The notes beneath the pieces were generated by a model. That model did not search any database and was not told where the DNA came from. It saw only the letters and a program-made list of their open reading frames with translations. Shown here piece after piece: positions 18,205 through 27,439 of a DNA stretch of 64,000 nt. A program made the translations under genes and the position numbers. The stretch is from NCBI RefSeq assembly GCF_988242995.1, contig NZ_OZ547043.1; one strand, written 5' to 3'. The number at the start of each line of letters is the position of its first letter. The first letter of the stretch is position 1.

Positions 18205-21200
18205 ATGGGTAAAGGCAGCAGTAAGGGGCATACCCCGCGCGAAGCGAAGGACAACCTGAAGTCCACGCAGCTGCTGAGTGTGATCGATGCCATCAGCGAA
18301 GGGCCGGTTGAAGGTCCGGTGGATGGATTAAAAAGCGTGCTGCTGAACAGTACGCCGGTGCTGGACAGTGAGGGGAATACCAATATATCCGGCGTCACGG
18401 TGGTGTTCCGGGCCGGTGAGCAGGAGCAGACTCCGCCGGAGGGATTTGAATCCTCCGGTTCCGAGACGGTGCTGGGTACGGAAGTGAAATATGACACGCC
18501 GATCACCCGCACCATCACGTCGGCAAACATCGACCGTCTGCGCTTTACCTTCGGTGTGCAGGCACTGGTGGAAACCACCTCAAAGGGGGACAGGAATCCA
18601 TCGGAAGTCCGCCTGCTGGTTCAGATACAACGTAACGGTGGCTGGGTGACGGAAAAAGACATCACCATTAAGGGTAAAACCACCTCGCAGTATCTGGCCT
18701 CAGTGGTGGTGGATAACCTGCCGCCGCGCCCGTTTAATATCCGGATGCGCAGGATGACGCCGGACAGCACCACAGACCAGCTGCAGAACAAAACGCTCTG
18801 GTCGTCATACACCGAAATCATCGATGTGAAACAGTGCTACCCGAACACGGCACTGGTCGGCGTGCAGGTGGACTCGGAGCAGTTCGGCAGCCAGCAGGTG
18901 AGCCGTAATTATCATCTGCGCGGGCGTATTCTGCAGGTGCCGTCGAACTATAACCCGCAGACGCGGCAATACAGCGGTATCTGGGACGGGACGTTTAAAC
19001 CGGCATACAGCAACAACATGGCCTGGTGTCTGTGGGATATGCTGACCCATCCGCGCTACGGCATGGGGAAGCGTCTCGGTGCGGCGGATGTGGACAAATG
19101 GGCGCTGTATGTCATCGGCCAGAATTGCGACCAGTCGGTGCCGGATGGCTTTGGTGGCACGGAGCCGCGCATCACCTGTAATGCCTGGCTGACCACGCAG
19201 CGCAAGGCGTGGGATGTGCTCAGTGATTTCTGCTCGGCGATGCGCTGTATGCCGGTATGGAACGGGCAGACGCTGACGTTCGTGCAGGACCGGCCATCGG
19301 ATAAGGTGTGGACCTATAACCGCAGTAATGTGGTGATGCCGGATGATGGCGCGCCGTTCCGCTACAGCTTCAGCGCCCTGAAGGACCGTCATAATGCCGT
19401 TGAGGTGAACTGGATTGACCCGGATAACGGCTGGGAGACGGCGACAGAGCTTGTGGAGGACACGCAGGCCATTGCCCGTTACGGTCGTAACGTCACGAAG
19501 ATGGATGCCTTTGGCTGTACCAGCCGGGGGCAGGCACACCGCGCCGGGCTGTGGCTGATTAAAACAGAACTGCTGGAAACGCAGACCGTGGATTTCAGCG
19601 TCGGCGCAGAAGGGCTTCGCCATGTACCGGGTGATGTTATTGAAATCTGCGATGATGACTATGCGGGGATCAGCATTGGCGGGCGCGTGCTGGCGGTGAA
19701 CAGCCAGACCCGGACGCTGACGCTCGACCGTGAAATCACGCTGCCATCCTCCGGTACCACGCTGATAAGCCTGGTTGACGGGCAGGGGAGTCCGGTCAGC
19801 GTGGAGGTTCAGTCCGTCACCGACGGCGTGAAGGTGAAAGTGAGTCGGGTTCCTGACGGCGTTGCCGAATACAGCGTGTGGGGGCTGAAGCTGCCGACGC
19901 TGCGCCAGCGCCTGTTCCGCTGTGTGAGTATCCGTGAGAACGATGACGGCACGTATGCCATCACCGCCGTGCAGCATGTACCGGAAAAAGAAGCCATCGT
20001 GGATAACGGGGCGCACTTTGACGGCGACCAGAGCGGCACGGTGAATGGTGTCACGCCGCCAGCGGTGCAGCACCTGACCGCCGAAGTCACCGCAGACAGC
20101 GGGGAATATCAGGTGCTGGCGCGATGGGACACGCCGAAGGTGGTGAAGGGCGTGAGCTTCCTGCTTCGCCTTACCGTGGCAGCGGACGACGGCAGTGAGC
20201 GGCTGGTCAGCATGGCCCGGACGACGGAAACCACATACCGCTTCAGGCAACTGGCGCTGGGGAACTACAGGCTGACAGTCCGGGCGGTAAATGCGTGGGG
20301 GCAGCAGGGCGATCCGGCGTCGGTATCGTTCCGGATTGCCGCACCGGCAGCACCGTCGAGGATTGAGCTGACGCCGGGCTATTTTCAGATAACCGCCACG
20401 CCGCATCTTGCCGTTTATGACCCGACGGTACAGTTTGAGTTCTGGTTCTCGGAAAATCGGATTGCGGATATCAGGCAGGTTGAAACCAGCGCGCGTTATC
20501 TTGGCACGGCGCTGTACTGGATAGCCGCCAGTATCAATATCAAACCGGGCCATGATTATTATTTTTACGTTCGCAGTGTGAACACCGTCGGCAAATCGAC
20601 ATTCGTGGAGGCTGTCGGTCGGGTGAGCGATGATGCGGAAGGTTACCTGGATTTTTTCAAAGGCAAGATAACCGAATCCCATCTCGGCAAGGAGCTGCTG
20701 GAAAAAGTCGAGCTGACGGAGGATAACGCCAGCAGACTGGAGGAGTTTTCGAAAGAGTGGAAGGACGCCAACGATAAGTGGAATGCCATGTGGGCTGTCA
20801 AAATTGAGCAGACCAAAGACGGCAAACATTATGTCGCGGGTATTGGCCTCAGCATGGAGGACACGGAGGAAGGCAAACTGAGCCAGTTCCTGGTTGCCGC
20901 TAACCGTATCGCATTTATTGACCCGGCAAACGGGAATGAAACGCCGATGTTTGTGGCGCAGGGCAATCAGATATTCATGAACGAAGTGTTCCTGAAATAT
21001 CTGACGGCTCCCACCATTACCAGCGGCGGTAATCCTCCGGCATTTTCCCTGACACCGGACGGGCGGCTGACGGCGAAAAATGCCGATATCAGCGGTAACG
21101 TGAATGCGAACTCCGGGACGCTCAACAACGTCACGATTAACGAGAACTGCCGGGTTCTGGGAAAACTGTCCGCGAACCAGATTGAAGGCGATCTCGTTAA

Positions 21201-21600
21201 AACAGTGGGCAAAGCTTTCCCCCGTGACTCCCGGGCACCGGAGCGGTGGCCATCAGGGACCATTACCGTCAGGGTTTATGACGATCAGCCGTTTGACCGG
21301 CAAATTGTTATTCCGGCGGTGGCATTCAGTGGCGCTAAGCATGAGAGAGAGCATACTGATATTTACTCCTCATGCCGTCTGATAGTGCGGAAAAACGGTG
21401 CTGAAATTTATAACCGTACCGCGCTGGATAATACGCTGATTTACAGTGGCGTTATTGATATGCCTGCCGGTCACGGTCACATGACACTGGAGTTTTCGGT
21501 GTCAGCATGGCTGGTAAATGGCTGGTATCCCACAGCAAGTATCAGCGATTTGCTGGTTGTTGTGATGAAGAAAGCCACTGCAGGCATCACGATTAGCTGA
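18205..21600 (+). CDS. J: Central tail fibre / host specificity protein J
   Basis: 1131-aa ORF matching lambda gpJ (lambda J is 1132 aa). Confidence 0.9.
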
Positions 21601-21667: not shown

Positions 21668-22267
21668 ATGCGTAAATTATGTGCTGTTATTCTGTCCGCA
21701 GTAGTCTGGCTGGTTGCCGCTGGTACGCCAGCGAGCGCAGCAGAGCATCAGTCCACACTAAGCGCCGGGTATCTTCAGACCCATACTGATATGCCAGGCA
21801 GTGATGACCTGAAGGGCATTAACGTGAAATACCGTTATGAATTTACGGACATGCTGGGGCTGGTGACGTCATTCAGTTATGCCAATGCCAAAGATGAGCA
21901 AAGAACGCATTACAGCGATACCCGCTGGCATGAAGATTCAGTGCGTAACCGCTGGTTCAGCATGATGGCGGGGCCATCTGTACGCGTGAATGAATGGTTC
22001 AGTGCTTATGCGATGGCAGGTGTGGCTTACAGCCGTGTTTCGACGTTCTCCGGGGATTATCTCCGCGTAACTGACAACAAGGGGAAAACGCACGATGTGC
22101 TGACCGGAAGTGATGACGATCGCCACAGCAACACGTCTCTGGCGTGGGGAGCTGGCGTGCAGTTTAACCCGACCGAATCCGTGGCCATTGATATTGCTTA
22201 TGAAGGCTCCGGCAGTGGCGACTGGCGCACTGACGGTTTCATCGTGGGTGTCGGTTATAAGTTCTGA
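21668..22267 (+). CDS. lom: Outer membrane protein Lom (Ail/Lom family)
   Basis: 199-aa ORF with signal peptide; matches lambda Lom. Confidence 0.85.
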   Translation: MRKLCAVILSAVVWLVAAGTPASAAEHQSTLSAGYLQTHTDMPGSDDLKGINVKYRYEFTDMLGLVTSFSYANAKDEQRTHYSDTRWHEDSVRNRWFSMMAGPSVRVNEWFSAYAMAGVAYSRVSTFSGDYLRVTDNKGKTHDVLTGSDDDRHSNTSLAWGAGVQFNPTESVAIDIAYEGSGSGDWRTDGFIVGVGYKF

Positions 22268-22293
22268 TTAGCCAGGTAACACAGTGTTATGAC

Positions 22294-22321
22294 AGCCCGC
22301 CGGTTCAGGCGGGCTTTTTTG
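22294..22321 (+). terminator. Rho-independent terminator after lom (gcccgcc...ggcgggc + TTTTTT)
   Basis: Read directly from sequence. Confidence 0.55.
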
Positions 22322-22325
22322 TGGA

Positions 22326-24722
22326 GTGGATATGGCAGCAGTAAAAATCTCAGGTGTGCTGAAAGATGGTGCGGGAAAACCAATACAGAACTGCACTATT
22401 CAACTGAAGGCAAAGCGTAACAGCACCACGGTACTGGTGAACACGGTGGCTTCTGAAAATCCGGATGAAGCCGGACGTTACAGCATGGATGTTGAGTATG
22501 GCCAGTACAGCGTCACCCTGCTGGTTGAAGGTTTTCCGCCTTCACATGCCGGGACCATTACCGTCTATGAAGGCTCCAGACCAGGTACGCTGAATGATTT
22601 TCTCGGTGCCATGACGGAAGATGATGTCATGCCGGAGGCATTGCGTCGTTTTGAGGCAATGGTGGAAGAAGCGGCACACAACGCTGAAGCCACCTTTCAG
22701 AGCGCAGCGGCGGCAAAGAAATCCGAAGCTGCTGCGGCATCATCGAAGAACGCGGCGAAAAGCTCAGAAACGAATGCAGCTAACAGCGCACAGGCGGCAG
22801 CGGCCTCACAGACTGCATCGGCAAACTCCGCGACAGCAGCCCAAAAATCAGAAGCCAACGCGAAAAATAGCGAAACAGCCGCAAAGACGAGCGAAACCAA
22901 CGCGAAGTCCAGCCAGACGGCAGCGAAAACCAGCGAAACGAATGCCAAAACCAGTGAAACTGCGGCGAAAAGCAGTCAGGCTGCAGCAGCCGAAAGCGAG
23001 AGTGCTGCAGCCGGTTCTGCGACTTCAGCAGCTGGATCAGCAACTGCTGCGGCTAACAGCCAGAAAGCAGCGAAGACGAGCGAAACTAACGCAAAGTCCA
23101 GCCAGACGGCAGCGAAGACCAGCGAAACGAATGCCAAAGCCAGCGAAACTGCGGCGAAAAACAGTCAGGATGCAGCGGCCCAAAGCGAGAGTGCCGCAGC
23201 TGGTTCTGCAAGTGCGGCGGCTTCTTCTGCCACTGCATCAGCCAACAGTCAAAAAGCTGCAAAAACCAGTGAAACCAACGCAAAGGCGAGCGAGACTGCG
23301 GCGGCGAACTCGGCGCAAGCATCGGCAGCAAGCCAGACAGCAGCTAAAGCAAGTGAAGACGCAGCCAGAGAGTATGCAAGCCAGGCAGCGGAGCCGTATA
23401 AACAAGTTTTGCAGCCGTTGCCCGATGTGTGGATACCGTTTAATGATTCACTGGATATGATTACGGGCTTTTCGCCATCATATAAAAAAATTGTTATTGG
23501 TGACGATGAAATAACGATGCCTGGCGACAAGATTGTTAAGTTTAAACGTGCATCAACGGCTACATATGTCAATAAATCCGGGGAACTGAAAATTGTAGCA
23601 ATCGACGAACCACGATTTGAAAAAGATGGTTTACTGATTGAAGGCCAACGAAGCAATTCATTTGCAGATTCTAATAATCCGTCGTTATGGAATAAAGCCG
23701 CACAATTGAATATAACCAATGGCAAAGATGAATTTGGTTTTACCTATGGTCTTATTAATGTTGTAGCCGAAACAAGCACTACCGGACGCGCTACATTTAT
23801 TTCAACTGGATATCCAAGATCAATGCCAGCAAAGGCAGGGGAATCTCTTACAATATCCTTCCGAGTTAAAAAAGTTGCTGGTGATGGGGTTCTGACAGTA
23901 TATCCGAGGATTGCTTATGTAAATGATGATGGCTCTAGTAATACTCTTTCTTCGAATGCCTATATAAATGCGGAAACGGGCGAAGTTTTAGGAACTCCTG
24001 CAGGCGGAAGCTCGACGAAAGTATATACTAAAATTGAATCCAATGGATGGTTGTTTGTATCTTTGACTTATAAAACCGCAGAAGACAAAACATTTTATGG
24101 TCGAATTGAAGTTGGTGCACATAAACGAGATATACAGATTGGTGATCAGTGGATGATAACGACACCGCAATTTGAAGTTGGTAGCAGTGCTTCTTCTTTT
24201 ATTATTTCTGGATCTGCGACAACGACAAGAGCGAGTGATTTAGTTACAATCCCGATCAAAAACAATATCTACAATTTACCGCTTACTGTAATGTGCGAAA
24301 CTAATCTTAATTGGGAATGGGATTCTCCGCCAAATGCCGCACCTAGAATAATGGATTTTACGGGTCAAAAAGCGGGGCAGGCCATAATTTATGGTCTACG
24401 TGGTGGGACTGCGGTTGATACTGGATCGCCCTATGTTGATATGGGTGATGGCGCTACAAGAATTAATAAGTATGTAAAAACAACAAATCGAAAGTTTATC
24501 TCTGGCTTTAGGTGTAAAGAAAATGGAGATACTCAAGCGTTTTGTAATTCTGTTTTTTCATCGTCTGCAAGGACAGATTATATTCATGTAGCACCAACTG
24601 CAACGATAAGATTTGGTGGGCAAACCAGTACGGGTGAGCGTCATATATTCGGACACATCCGAAATTTCAGGATTTGGCATAAAGCGTTAACTGATGCACA
24701 AATGGGGGAGAGTATTAAATGA
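22326..24722 (+). CDS. stf: Side tail fibre protein, mosaic: lambda Stf-like N-terminus, Ala/Ser/Thr-rich tandem-repeat shaft, unrelated AT-rich C-terminal domain
   Basis: N-terminus MDMAAVKISGVLKDGAGKPIQNCTIQLKAKRNSTTVLVNTV... matches lambda Stf; C-terminal about 440 aa (from ...QPLPDVWIPFNDSLD) has no lambda Stf similarity and lower GC. Confidence 0.8.
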   Translation: MDMAAVKISGVLKDGAGKPIQNCTIQLKAKRNSTTVLVNTVASENPDEAGRYSMDVEYGQYSVTLLVEGFPPSHAGTITVYEGSRPGTLNDFLGAMTEDDVMPEALRRFEAMVEEAAHNAEATFQSAAAAKKSEAAAASSKNAAKSSETNAANSAQAAAASQTASANSATAAQKSEANAKNSETAAKTSETNAKSSQTAAKTSETNAKTSETAAKSSQAAAAESESAAAGSATSAAGSATAAANSQKAAKTSETNAKSSQTAAKTSETNAKASETAAKNSQDAAAQSESAAAGSASAAASSATASANSQKAAKTSETNAKASETAAANSAQASAASQTAAKASEDAAREYASQAAEPYKQVLQPLPDVWIPFNDSLDMITGFSPSYKKIVIGDDEITMPGDKIVKFKRASTATYVNKSGELKIVAIDEPRFEKDGLLIEGQRSNSFADSNNPSLWNKAAQLNITNGKDEFGFTYGLINVVAETSTTGRATFISTGYPRSMPAKAGESLTISFRVKKVAGDGVLTVYPRIAYVNDDGSSNTLSSNAYINAETGEVLGTPAGGSSTKVYTKIESNGWLFVSLTYKTAEDKTFYGRIEVGAHKRDIQIGDQWMITTPQFEVGSSASSFIISGSATTTRASDLVTIPIKNNIYNLPLTVMCETNLNWEWDSPPNAAPRIMDFTGQKAGQAIIYGLRGGTAVDTGSPYVDMGDGATRINKYVKTTNRKFISGFRCKENGDTQAFCNSVFSSSARTDYIHVAPTATIRFGGQTSTGERHIFGHIRNFRIWHKALTDAQMGESIK
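22883..23300 (+). repeat. About 189-bp tandem repeat (2 copies plus a partial third) inside stf
   Basis: Near-identical DNA blocks starting aagacgagcgaaac...; protein repeat AAKTSETNAKSSQTAAKTSETNAK... Confidence 0.7.
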
Positions 24723-25000
24723 AAGATTTAACACTAAAATTTTCTGACAGGGCCGACTTTTCGGCCTTTATGGATAGCATTGGCTATTATGATGACGAGT
24801 CGATGCAGGATGATATTCTCATTGACGTGATAGGTAACGTGTACAAAGAAACCGGAGAACTGAATGAAGATGGCGAACCGGTATGTGTTAAGGAAGACGG
24901 ATATTTTGTAAACGTGCGCATCATTAATGATGTGAAAACACCGTCAATATTCGATGAATACGTGGTTGCTGTTGAGCATCAACTTCGTGGCTGGATGTGA
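24719..25000 (+). CDS. Hypothetical acidic protein (93 aa) downstream of stf
   Basis: ATGA overlap with stf stop; no recognisable family. Confidence 0.4.
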   Translation: MKDLTLKFSDRADFSAFMDSIGYYDDESMQDDILIDVIGNVYKETGELNEDGEPVCVKEDGYFVNVRIINDVKTPSIFDEYVVAVEHQLRGWM

Positions 25001-25009
25001 GGAAGAAAA

Positions 25010-25699
25010 ATGGCTACATCGACAGTAATTCCGGGAGACATTACCACGCTAAAGGGAGATGTCAGTAAAGCTAAGGAAGATATTTCCTCAATTAACGGAA
25101 AAGTATCAACGCTTCAGACTGATATGACCAGTGCAAAGCAGGATATCAGCACCAGATACACAAAAACTGAAGTTGATAATAAGCTGAAAAACAAAGTGGA
25201 AGTGAACGATCTGGAAAGTGGTCGTTATGGCGGAGATTTTTACCCGCTGACTGGCCGTGAAGCGTTTTATTTATGGGGATTGGGCACAACTACAGCGGCG
25301 GCAAATCTTTATCTTAATCCTGACCCTGCAATTTCGTCTGTGCTGCGGTCAACATCGTCTATCCGCTATAAACATTCAGTAGAGACGATAGATTCAGAGC
25401 ACGCCGATCTCATTTTCAAGATGCGCCCTGTATGGTACAGGTCGCAATGCGAAAATGACAGGCGCGGTTGGGGATTCTATGGATTGATTGCCGAGGAAGT
25501 AGGAGAAATTGCCCCTCAGTTTGTACACTGGCGACCAGCTAACGAGAATGATGCTCCTGAAGCTATTTCCAGCAATGGCCTTGTTGCCGAAGGTGTAATG
25601 TACGAACGTCTGGTTGTTCCACTGATTCACCATATCCAGAAACTGACTGAAAGAGTTGAAGAACTTGAGTCAGAATTAAAGTTGTTATCAACTTCCTGA
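25010..25699 (+). CDS. Short tail-fibre-like protein: N-terminal coiled coil plus C-terminal intramolecular-chaperone (peptidase S74-like) domain
   Basis: 229-aa ORF; C-terminal segment SSIRYKHSVETIDSEHADLIFKMRPVWYR...GFYGLIAEEVGEIAPQFV...GLVAEGVMYERLVVPLIHHIQKLTERVEELE resembles autoproteolytic chaperone domains of phage fibres and endosialidases. Confidence 0.55.
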   Translation: MATSTVIPGDITTLKGDVSKAKEDISSINGKVSTLQTDMTSAKQDISTRYTKTEVDNKLKNKVEVNDLESGRYGGDFYPLTGREAFYLWGLGTTTAAANLYLNPDPAISSVLRSTSSIRYKHSVETIDSEHADLIFKMRPVWYRSQCENDRRGWGFYGLIAEEVGEIAPQFVHWRPANENDAPEAISSNGLVAEGVMYERLVVPLIHHIQKLTERVEELESELKLLSTS

Positions 25700-25724
25700 A
25701 GCGATATTGGATAAAGGAGGAGTA

Positions 25725-26018
25725 ATGGATATAACACCTTTCCTTCACGCGCTTTGTGCTGTGGCTGCGCAGGTACTGGTTGGTCTTTTTACCGGGAACT
25801 GGGCTTACGGGGCGATAGCCGGTTGTACGTTCTTCATTGCGCGTGAACACACCCAGGCAGAATATCGCTGGATTGAAATGTTCGGGCATGGCAAGCGAAT
25901 GAATATGCCGTGGTGGGGCGGTTTTGATCCGCGAGCGTGGGATGTGGCAAGCCTGATGGATTTTGCTGTGCCGGTGGTGGCGTGTCTGCTGGTCTGGCTG
26001 TTGGTTAATCGTGGGTGA
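25725..26018 (+). CDS. Small predicted membrane protein (97 aa, two hydrophobic segments); possible moron or exclusion protein
   Basis: Strong AAGGAGG RBS before MDITPF...; hydrophobic stretches read from translation. Confidence 0.45.
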   Translation: MDITPFLHALCAVAAQVLVGLFTGNWAYGAIAGCTFFIAREHTQAEYRWIEMFGHGKRMNMPWWGGFDPRAWDVASLMDFAVPVVACLLVWLLVNRG

Positions 26019-26689
26019 AAAAAGGTGAGCTGTATATGCAACGGAGGAAGAAACCCCGTTGCTGGAAGCCTGGAAAAAGTATCGGGTGCTGCTAAACCGT
26101 GTGGACACTTCCGTAGCACCAGATATCGAGTGGCTTATTCAACCATAATAAACAGTATGTATATCATAGGTTATTAATTGTGAGTTTTTTCGGTGTGTTA
26201 TTTGTTTGATGTTATGATTTTGCGCCCCAAAAGGTTGTTTAGATGTATTTTATCAATTGATTTTCAATATCGTTTAATAAAGAAAAATTAAGCAAGTTGG
26301 ATGTTGGTTTTTTGTTAATTGAATGGTTCTAATAATGTTTTTTTACTGTTGTTGAATGTGACTTGATAAGAAATGCAAGTAAAAATGATACTCTTTTTAT
26401 TTTAAATTCAAACGGTTGACATATATATAGCAAGAGGTTTCAGGTGCGTTGTAGTGAGTTTATGTTAATAAAAAGCATAGTAAGCGTTGAAAAATGTAAC
26501 TTTGAAATACGTTAGAATAAAAAACAATATACATATAATAATTTAATCTTAAATGAAATTTATTAAAAATTGCAAACTATAATTTTGTGTATAAAAATAT
26601 AAATGCACATCATCCTGATTATGATTGTGTATTTAATTGGTTGTTATTTGACTACTATCAACTTGTTTTAATTTTATGATAGGTGCAAG

Positions 26690-27439
26690 ATGGATTATGT
26701 TTGCTCCGTAGTTTTCATCTGTCAATCATTTGATTTAATTATAAACAGGAGAGTTATCTCGTTCAAAAAAAATTCATTGTTTATTGTAAGCGACAAAATT
26801 AGAAGAGAGTTACCAGTATGCCCCTCTAAACTAAGAATTGTTGATATAGATAAGAAAACATGTTTATCCTTTTTTATCGACGTGAATAATGAGTTGCCTG
26901 GCAAATTTACTCTTGATAAGAATGGCTATATTGCTGAAGAGGAACCTCCATTATCGCTTGTTTTTTCTCTGTTTGAAGGGATTAAAATAGCAGACTCACA
27001 CTCCCTTTGGTTAAAAGAAAGACTATGTATATCCTTACTTGCCATGTTCAAAAAACGCGAAAGTGTAAATTCATTTATACTAACAAATATAAATACATTT
27101 ACCTGTAAAATTACTGGAATAATCAGTTTTAATATTGAGCGGCAATGGCATTTAAAAGATATTGCGGAATTGATTTATACGAGTGAAAGTTTAATAAAAA
27201 AAAGATTAAGGGATGAAGGAACGTCATTTACTGAAATATTGAGAGATACTAGGATGAGGTATGCAAAAAAACTCATAACTTCAAACTCTTATTCTATCAA
27301 TGTCGTAGCCCAGAAATGTGGCTATAACAGTGCTTCATATTTCATATGTGCATTTAAAGATTATTATGGTGTCACGCCATCTCATTATTTTGAGAAAATA
27401 ATCGGCGTCACAGATGGAATAAACAAAACAATTGACTGA
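26690..27439 (+). CDS. appY: AraC-family transcriptional activator AppY
   Basis: 249-aa ORF matching E. coli AppY; AT-rich upstream region. Confidence 0.85.

Follow-up and report, generated by a model that had tools for sequence, protein, structure and literature searches.

A short protein with an intramolecular chaperone occupies a swappable slot behind the side tail fibre gene of a lambdoid Escherichia coli prophage

Among the closest described systems is the lateral tail fibre of IrisVonRoten (Bas32, Tequintavirus), in which AlphaFold-Multimer attaches Gp24, a T-shaped protein bearing an intramolecular chaperone (IMC), to the proximal fibre (Humolli et al. 2025, PMC11990801); in the same model a galectin-like domain juts out at the C-terminal end of the proximal fibre (PMC11990801). 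The complex is itself a prediction and not a solved structure. Chaperone domains of this kind (Peptidase_S74) also end the L-shaped fibre of T5/DT57C and the endosialidase of K1F, while lambda and Mu/P2-type phages pair a fibre with the tail fibre assembly protein Tfa. Here we analyse the tail end of a lambdoid prophage at the DLP12 site, in a 64,000-nucleotide stretch of contig NZ_OZ547043.1 (assembly GCF_988242995.1), all of which we call the window. The side tail fibre gene stf is followed there by three small genes, orf93, orf229 and orf97, and an earlier note had described these as a standalone short fibre protein with an S74-like chaperone domain, flanked by two uncharacterised genes; all three lie where that note had placed them.

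The gene order and translational coupling are those of the IrisVonRoten lateral fibre; unlike in IrisVonRoten, the cassette sits in a temperate lambdoid backbone, is grafted on a lambda-type Stf N-terminus and has orf97 after it. With lambda Stf-Tfa the locus shares the genome position after J and lom and the N-terminal anchor of Stf, whereas relative to lambda and to Mu/P2-type pairs the distal half of Stf and tfa have been replaced, and orf93 and orf229 are unlike Tfa (neither has a Pfam or NCBIfam match to it). We favour, at a little better than even odds, the view that the three co-transcribed genes of 22332-25699 together build a composite side tail fibre, with orf229 as a minimal distal or branch fibre. 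The features are as follows.

22332..24722, + strand: stf, side tail fibre of 796-798 aa
23400..25700, + strand: mobile fibre cassette (distal half of stf, orf93 and orf229), from the G+C shift and homology to lytic phages
24719..25000, + strand: orf93, acidic 93-aa accessory protein, its start overlapping the stf stop (ATGA)
25010..25699, + strand: orf229, candidate minimal distal or branch fibre with a C-terminal IMC
25010..25084, + strand: N-terminal motif MATSTVIPGDITTLKGDVS... of orf229, proposed docking peptide, common to the 346-aa allele and the third genes of lytic phages
25037..25162, + strand: coiled-coil stalk of orf229, six heptads, aa 10-51, from the heptad layout
25217..25354, + strand: short tip of orf229, aa 70-115 (~45 aa), just before the predicted cleavage site
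25355..25696, + strand: IMC (Peptidase_S74) domain of orf229, aa 116-229, with Ser116 at 25355-25357 and Lys121 at 25370-25372
25725..26018, + strand: orf97, small predicted inner-membrane protein of family Ybl63 (UniRef name; phrog_1443, E 3.5e-59)
26038..26148, + strand: C-terminal tfa remnant of 39 aa, seen in translation and annotated by PGAP as a partial pseudogene in E. coli GF131 and E. coli B

The third-gene protein orf229

The earlier note's view of orf229 as a standalone short protein after stf, with a coiled coil at its N-terminus and a chaperone domain at its C-terminus, was borne out. A hidden Markov model search matched Pfam PF13884 (Peptidase_S74) to aa 116-172, covering model positions 1-57 of 58 (independent E-value 3.3e-5), and the same family is precomputed for close homologues of orf229. 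Among solved structures its best relative is 8hqz_d ('L-shaped tail fiber assembly'; E 1.4e-6), a chain of 1,076 residues whose C-terminal end aligns with aa 109-221 and places GTSGIEYK over STSSIRYK. Residues S116, R119, Y120 and K121 (in SSIRYK) are invariant in nine homologues that are 60-96% identical. The general S74 layout is also found here: the domain stands at the C-terminus after a predicted trimeric fibre segment, and it ends in a helix. On this evidence we infer that the IMC cleaves itself at Ser116 with the help of Lys121. The IMCs of the T5/DT57C fibre and the K1F endosialidase resemble it in their full PF13884 match, in the spacing of Ser and Lys and in a C-terminal helical segment; they differ in that they end fibres or tailspikes of ~1,000 aa, whereas that of orf229 makes up half of a 229-aa protein and its cleavage is predicted.

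The stalk ahead of this domain consists of six heptads with I, V or M at position 2 and mostly L, A or I at position 5. The number of heptads differs among homologues, and the coiled coil has a weak match to that of the P22 gp26 needle. Helix positions were taken from an AlphaFold2 model of three orf229 copies joined by Gly-Ser linkers (nine-row alignment matched to it), which was used for this purpose only. In it aa 10-47 are helical, with a predicted local distance difference test score (pLDDT) of 82-89 over aa 21-50, and a C-terminal helix is predicted at aa 198-222 (block-mean pLDDT ~60-78). The tip between stalk and IMC is strongly conserved between lambdoid and T1-like copies. The last ~30 tip residues and the IMC form a unit that recurs in longer tail fibres, whose C-terminal ends are 57-63% identical to aa 85-115 plus the IMC.

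PGAP names orf229 'tail fiber domain-containing protein', and its PHROG assignment is 3299/37852. NCBIfam and PADLOC searches with orf93, orf229 and orf97 returned nothing but a noise-level CorA match. We considered a programmed fusion of orf93 and orf229 and rejected it, because orf229 has its own ribosome-binding site (GAGGAAG 5′ of the ATG) and begins with a conserved Met-Ala-Thr in all the phage families compared. The TGA at 25697-25699 is CGA or CAA in other copies, so that the window's orf229 is five codons shorter than the common 234-aa form; this early stop widens the gap to orf97 from ~10 to 25 nt.

The fibre cassette and its third-gene slot

Stf is built of a lambdoid N-terminal anchor, Ala/Ser/Thr-rich repeats and a LamG/galectin-like distal part beginning at about aa 366 (PDVWIPF, ~23421). 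It matches phrog_1419 over its full length and NF048003 (head spike fibre domain) at E 2.1e-15. The start used here, 22332, is that of PGAP in E. coli GF131 (99.9% identical), whereas our list of open reading frames (ORFs) begins the gene with a GTG at 22326. The G+C content falls from 53-57% in the 5′ half of stf to ~37-44% from ~23400, inside the gene, to ~25400, then stands at ~46-48% over the 3′ part of orf229, 54% in orf97 and 23-37% downstream. From about aa 366 of Stf onward, the lytic T1-like phages KarlJaspers and XY3 keep homologues of Stf, orf93 and orf229 in the same order; for KarlJaspers the identities are 44% (distal part of the fibre), 50% (orf93) and ~62% (orf229). By this homology the cassette is common to lambdoid prophages and several families of lytic coliphages. 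Between loci the distal part of Stf is hypervariable (42-77% identity).

The stalk of Stf shows a variation of its own. Tandem DNA repeats at 22869-23303 (periods of 21, 42 and 189 nt, in 2-3.5 copies) build its Ala/Ser/Thr/Lys-rich sequence and have a very strong skew of A over T. Their number varies by locus, which gives Stf proteins of 731-812 aa among lambdoid loci with a third gene.

The second gene, orf93, encodes the acidic protein recorded earlier (isoelectric point 4.09; 21 acidic and 8 basic residues). It matches phrog_1361 (E 2e-45) and has no Pfam match; a search of the Protein Data Bank (PDB) and Pfam with its alignment profile also found nothing. AlphaFold2 models it with confidence as a small alpha/beta protein (pLDDT 88.5), for which a fold search gave no informative structural match. 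The family is small, with only 50 representatives in 1.8 billion proteins, and it is spread over 181 phage records (lambdoid, T1-like, Dhillonvirus, Seuratvirus/Nonagvirus, T5-like and rV5-like). A relative of orf93 also lies directly 3′ of a fibre gene, with stop and start overlapping, in three distant loci from metagenomes; Laminin_G_3 is recorded for two of these three fibres, and the third was not looked up. The protein always stands 3′ of LamG-type fibres, whether the third gene is present or absent. Orf93 would be a small accessory protein specific to this fibre type, translationally coupled to stf, and most likely acts in assembly or as a minor subunit of the structure.

Between orf93 and orf97 lies a swappable slot, which is either empty or filled by one of two alleles, the 229/234-aa one or one of 346 aa whose middle domain is large. 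In a census of 5,426 complete E. coli genomes, the 229/234-aa allele was found in 739 (14%; coverage at least 80%), where the rows sampled are annotated as normal coding sequences (CDSs), and the 346-aa allele in 429; the slot was empty in 1,128, as it is in phage 21. The two alleles share the first 27 residues (20/27 identical) and a distant IMC, in which the 346-aa allele has SDRDLK at the Ser...Lys site, and nothing else. Compared with the AF34 locus, which carries the 346-aa allele, the DNA of the window is 97-100% identical in orf93 and orf97 and of low identity between them, with 73-80% over the N-terminal codons. Since identity over these codons is only 73-80%, the N-terminal peptide is conserved as protein and is more than a recombination scar. 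The Stf distal domain reassorts independently of the third gene: distal domains of empty-slot loci are 69-73% identical to those of loci with the S74 gene, and the empty-type Lambda_2E9 Stf is 69% identical to the Stf of KarlJaspers, a phage that does have a third gene.

Among the lambdoid loci compared, orf229 is 95-97% identical. It is intact in 8/8 loci, and orf93 and orf97 are each intact in 12/12. The ratio of nonsynonymous to synonymous substitution rates (dN/dS) against the window, over the pairs for which it could be computed, is 0.09-0.38 across the three genes and 0.11-0.22 for orf229. All three are genuine intact genes under purifying selection, and neither of the findings that would have spoken against the earlier note, lack of a chaperone-domain match or ORFs not conserved as intact genes, was made. 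Homologues of orf229 in lytic T1-like phages are full-length standalone genes of 55-63% identity, and lytic phages have standalone orthologues, 221-269 aa long, that share its start.

The same order of genes, a fibre with a LamG/galectin-like end, a ~92-aa protein and an IMC protein, occurs in T1-like, Seuratvirus and T5-like (Tequintavirus) phages. The products of the gene that follows the orf93 family are 225-576 aa long (up to 576 aa in lytic phages); all seven compared start with M-(A/V)-T-x-T-x-I-P-x-D-I-T-x-L-K, end in an IMC and vary in the middle, and alleles of the slot elsewhere have middle domains of 190-450 aa that resemble receptor-binding ones. In Escherichia phage EC100 (T5-like; L029:3789-5519) the Ser of the IMC is replaced by Cys, with CDERLK instead of SDxRxK, and this homologue may be a Cys-nucleophile variant or carry an inactive domain. 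With IrisVonRoten, Stf is 42% identical to Gp22 (796 aa) over 755 aa (E 1e-149) and orf93 is 39% identical to Gp23 (92 aa; E 4e-26). Orf229 and Gp24 (574 aa) share the N-terminal motif MxTxTVIPxDITxLK and the C-terminal IMC, and BLASTP aligns the N-terminal residues and the IMC but not the middle of Gp24. Gp24 has two predicted receptor-binding domains, whereas orf229 has only its coiled coil and ~45-aa tip. With ~115 mature residues and no counterpart of that middle, orf229 would therefore be a minimal variant rather than a T-shaped fibre with two receptor-binding domains.

A proposed composite side fibre and its alternatives

The homologies, gene order, polymorphism, selection and catalytic residues set out above are the starting point for a proposal that includes trimerisation, self-cleavage, docking on Stf and roles for orf93 and orf97. 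Stf would be the proximal fibre, anchored to the tail by its lambdoid N-terminus, and its hypervariable C-terminal LamG/galectin-like domain would be the main sugar-binding receptor domain, with orf93 as an obligate small partner. Orf229 would trimerise through its six-heptad coiled coil and ~45-residue tip; its IMC would nucleate folding of the protein and then cut itself off at Ser116 using Lys121, leaving a mature trimer of ~115 residues per chain. The conserved N-terminal 15-25 residues would dock this trimer on the Stf/orf93 assembly. Orf97 would stand outside the fibre: a conserved inner-membrane protein, transcribed together with the fibre genes at their 3′ end, that acts on a conserved function of the host or its envelope.

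Several points weigh against this proposal. A literature search found no experiment, functional data or virion proteomics for the standalone S74 protein. Mature orf229 has no sizeable receptor-binding domain, so that its contribution is hard to see. Its proposed attachment to Stf goes back to a published model of a 574-aa homologue, whose similarity to orf229 is confined to the N-terminal ~15 residues and the IMC. The linked-trimer AlphaFold2 model has a mean pLDDT of 52, and below 50 in the tip, which leaves the tip fold and the trimer unconfirmed. Finally, the BASEL authors themselves name the versions from T1-like phages and Seuratvirus a 'putative lateral tail fiber chaperone'.

Orf229 might instead be a functional mini-fibre that is not seated on Stf, placed elsewhere on the tail or acting as an independent short fibre. 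We consider this unlikely. Our data hold no direct evidence of contact with Stf, and the conserved N-terminus could bind another conserved part of the tail; the gene, however, travels with the distal half of Stf and with orf93 across lambdoid, T1-like, Seuratvirus and T5-like backbones. Since tail tips and fibre anchors differ among those backbones, the partners that are common to all of them would lie only inside the cassette.

The earlier note had raised the idea of a trans-acting fibre chaperone. Orf229 would in that case template the trimerisation of LamG-type Stf and then be discarded, leaving it out of the virion. Its shortness, the lack of an obvious receptor-binding domain, the GenBank label of its homologues quoted above and the absence from the locus of a Tfa-type chaperone beyond the 39-aa remnant would all suit such a role, which we nevertheless regard as quite improbable. 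Stf with orf92 and no third gene is the commonest state (the 1,128 genomes above, and free phages such as phage 21), which argues against an obligatory trans-acting chaperone, and the Stf distal domains of such loci are similar (69-73% identity) to those of gene-bearing loci. The alleles in the same slot have the 190-450-aa middle domains typical of receptor-binding proteins, and the homologous third gene of IrisVonRoten is modelled as a distal fibre. To our knowledge, moreover, every characterised IMC acts in cis on its own polypeptide.

The note's other suggestion, the remnant of a second fibre, here taken as the decaying C-terminus of a longer one, might draw on the match of the whole protein to the C-terminal ~240 positions of a 1,385-position PHROG profile and on the five codons missing from the window copy, but is effectively refuted by conservation, namely the dN/dS of 0.11-0.22 with intact copies in all eight comparison loci, the presence of the gene in 739 complete E. 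coli genomes (14%), annotated as a normal CDS in the rows sampled, the 55-63% identical standalone gene of T1-like phages, the 221-269-aa orthologues with the same start in lytic phages and the gene's own ribosome-binding site.

The composite side fibre thus remains the reading that we prefer. Under it a common E. coli prophage region, present also in E. coli B laboratory strains, would encode a modular side fibre of several parts rather than Stf and three hypothetical proteins. Such a fibre would combine a hypervariable lectin-like domain with a plug-in slot for a second, self-chaperoned fibre, the design seen in T1-like, Seuratvirus and T5-like phages. This bears on how the host range of lambda-based delivery particles is predicted and engineered: orf93 would probably be required by a chimeric Stf of this type, and a second specificity could be placed in the third-gene slot. 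The S74 mini-fibre is already catalogued and the fibre architecture has been described by prediction in lytic phages; what this analysis adds is to recognise in orf229 the minimal allele of a swappable slot for a third gene in lambdoid Stf cassettes, and to count the genomes in each of the three slot states. Orf229 itself is most likely an ordinary fibre part that holds no mechanistic surprise.

Orf97 and the surrounding region

Orf97, like orf93, represents a very common family of small uncharacterised proteins, and of the two it is the one that most calls for notice. It has the strong ribosome-binding site noted before (AAGGAGG, 5 nt 5′ of the ATG). A membrane topology of two helices had been proposed; the hydropathy profile shows a hydrophobic N-terminus of ~35 residues and a C-terminal transmembrane segment at aa 74-95, and the phage 21 record gives two transmembrane domains for the homologue. 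Three helices are also possible. There is no lipobox, and Cys11 is not conserved. Neither sequence nor alignment-profile searches found a Pfam, PDB, NCBIfam or PADLOC relative, and a literature search for 'Ybl63' found no match.

A search for the family returned 583 clusters at 90% identity, with proteins of 95-102 aa, from genera that include Escherichia, Salmonella, Leclercia, Citrobacter, Aeromonas and Comamonas. Its transmembrane segments vary, and the central loop of ~40 residues is nearly invariant (F-I-A-R-E-H-T-Q-A-E-Y-R-W-I...N-M-P-W-W-G-G-F-D-x-R-x-W). Even in loci whose Stf distal parts and orf93 have no more than ~42-51% identity to each other, orf97 is 97% identical.

Homologues recur beside receptor-binding genes in other phages. 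In P2/HP1-like prophages of Leclercia and Aeromonas they lie directly 3′ of S74-bearing tail fibres, the homologue starting at or just after the stop of a fibre of 939-964 aa that ends in S74 (L011:3181-6297 and L024:2107-5309), so that the pairing of an S74 fibre with the orf97 family recurs in unrelated phages. Homologues are also found after the tailspike of Gally, a P22-like phage, with int on the other side; after tfa in phiHAP-1; two genes after a J-like gene in Comamonas; and, in a 160-kb myovirus of lytic type (95% identity to Salmonella phage pSal-SNUABM-02), between tailspike genes. One homologue, on the chromosome of Aeromonas rivipollensis (L009:6001-6309), sits amid genes for pirin, a RIO1 kinase and two lipid A acyltransferases, with no phage genes within 6 kb. 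Two T1-like cassettes examined lack the gene.

Like orf97, Cor (T1/phi80-type), Llp (T5) and Lom (lambda) are small proteins of the envelope whose genes neighbour those for receptor binding. Orf97 resembles none of them in sequence and is predicted to be a helical inner-membrane protein, whereas theirs is a group of outer-membrane proteins or lipoproteins; unlike the Cor/Llp type, it does not co-vary with the receptor-binding allele and is also found in lytic phages. The earlier note had named orf97 a moron or exclusion candidate, and our results neither support nor exclude this. As a prophage-expressed superinfection-exclusion or lysogenic-conversion protein (moron), which we hold to be possible though doubtful, it would be in a familiar place, right after the receptor-binding genes, a site that in other phages holds Cor, Llp, Lom and gtr-type genes, with the position between tailspike gene and int in Gally as a further case. 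Its absence from the two homologous T1-like cassettes, its G+C content of 54% (against 37-48% in the cassette upstream and 23-37% downstream) and the strong ribosome-binding site of a membrane protein all point the same way. On the other side, crude consensus scans found no promoter-like site on the + strand of 24584-26363 and no terminator-like site near orf97, and in the common form the gene before it ends with a stop codon directly next to its Shine-Dalgarno sequence. The homologues in the P2/HP1-like prophages and phiHAP-1 are embedded between late fibre genes, and that of the 160-kb myovirus lies between tailspike genes; the lack of co-variation with the fibre allele, of a lipobox and of a PADLOC match also counts against it. 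Given the missing promoter-like and terminator-like flanks, the abutting Shine-Dalgarno sequence, the lack of co-variation and the lytic homologues, orf97 does not look like a classical moron or like the Cor/Llp kind of exclusion protein, which is receptor-specific. It may have a general function at the level of the membrane, perhaps exclusion.

More speculatively, and in our judgement improbable as it stands, orf97 may represent an undescribed, widespread family of ~97-residue inner-membrane proteins (Ybl63/phrog_1443) that ends receptor-binding gene clusters of temperate as well as lytic phages, among them siphoviruses, myoviruses and podoviruses. Its loop would target a conserved function of the host envelope and so protect the infected or lysogenic cell, or the phage progeny, whatever the receptor; candidate targets would be, for example, the export or assembly of surface polysaccharide, or DNA entry.

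The remaining features of the region are these.

18205-21600: J
21668-22267: lom
beyond the tfa remnant, by gene order: appY, ompT and envY

The region is 99.9% identical in E. coli GF131 and ~96% identical in E. coli B ATCC 11303. The tfa remnant 3′ of orf97 shows that the LamG-type cassette has overwritten an ancestral pair of stf and tfa, and it marks the right edge of the replaced region. Between the end of the prophage and appY, 26150-26700 is very AT-rich (23-27% G+C). The sole terminator-like hairpin within 22000-26800 is at 22294-22315, between lom and stf; it sits upstream of stf and the genes that follow, which are themselves presumably late genes. An antisense ORF at 25563-26108 was judged spurious because the conserved genes are those on the + strand. 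In E. coli genomes that have any part of 24719-26018, matches lie at a median of two places and at most seven, mostly through orf97, so that several lambdoid prophages in one cell can each hold a copy.

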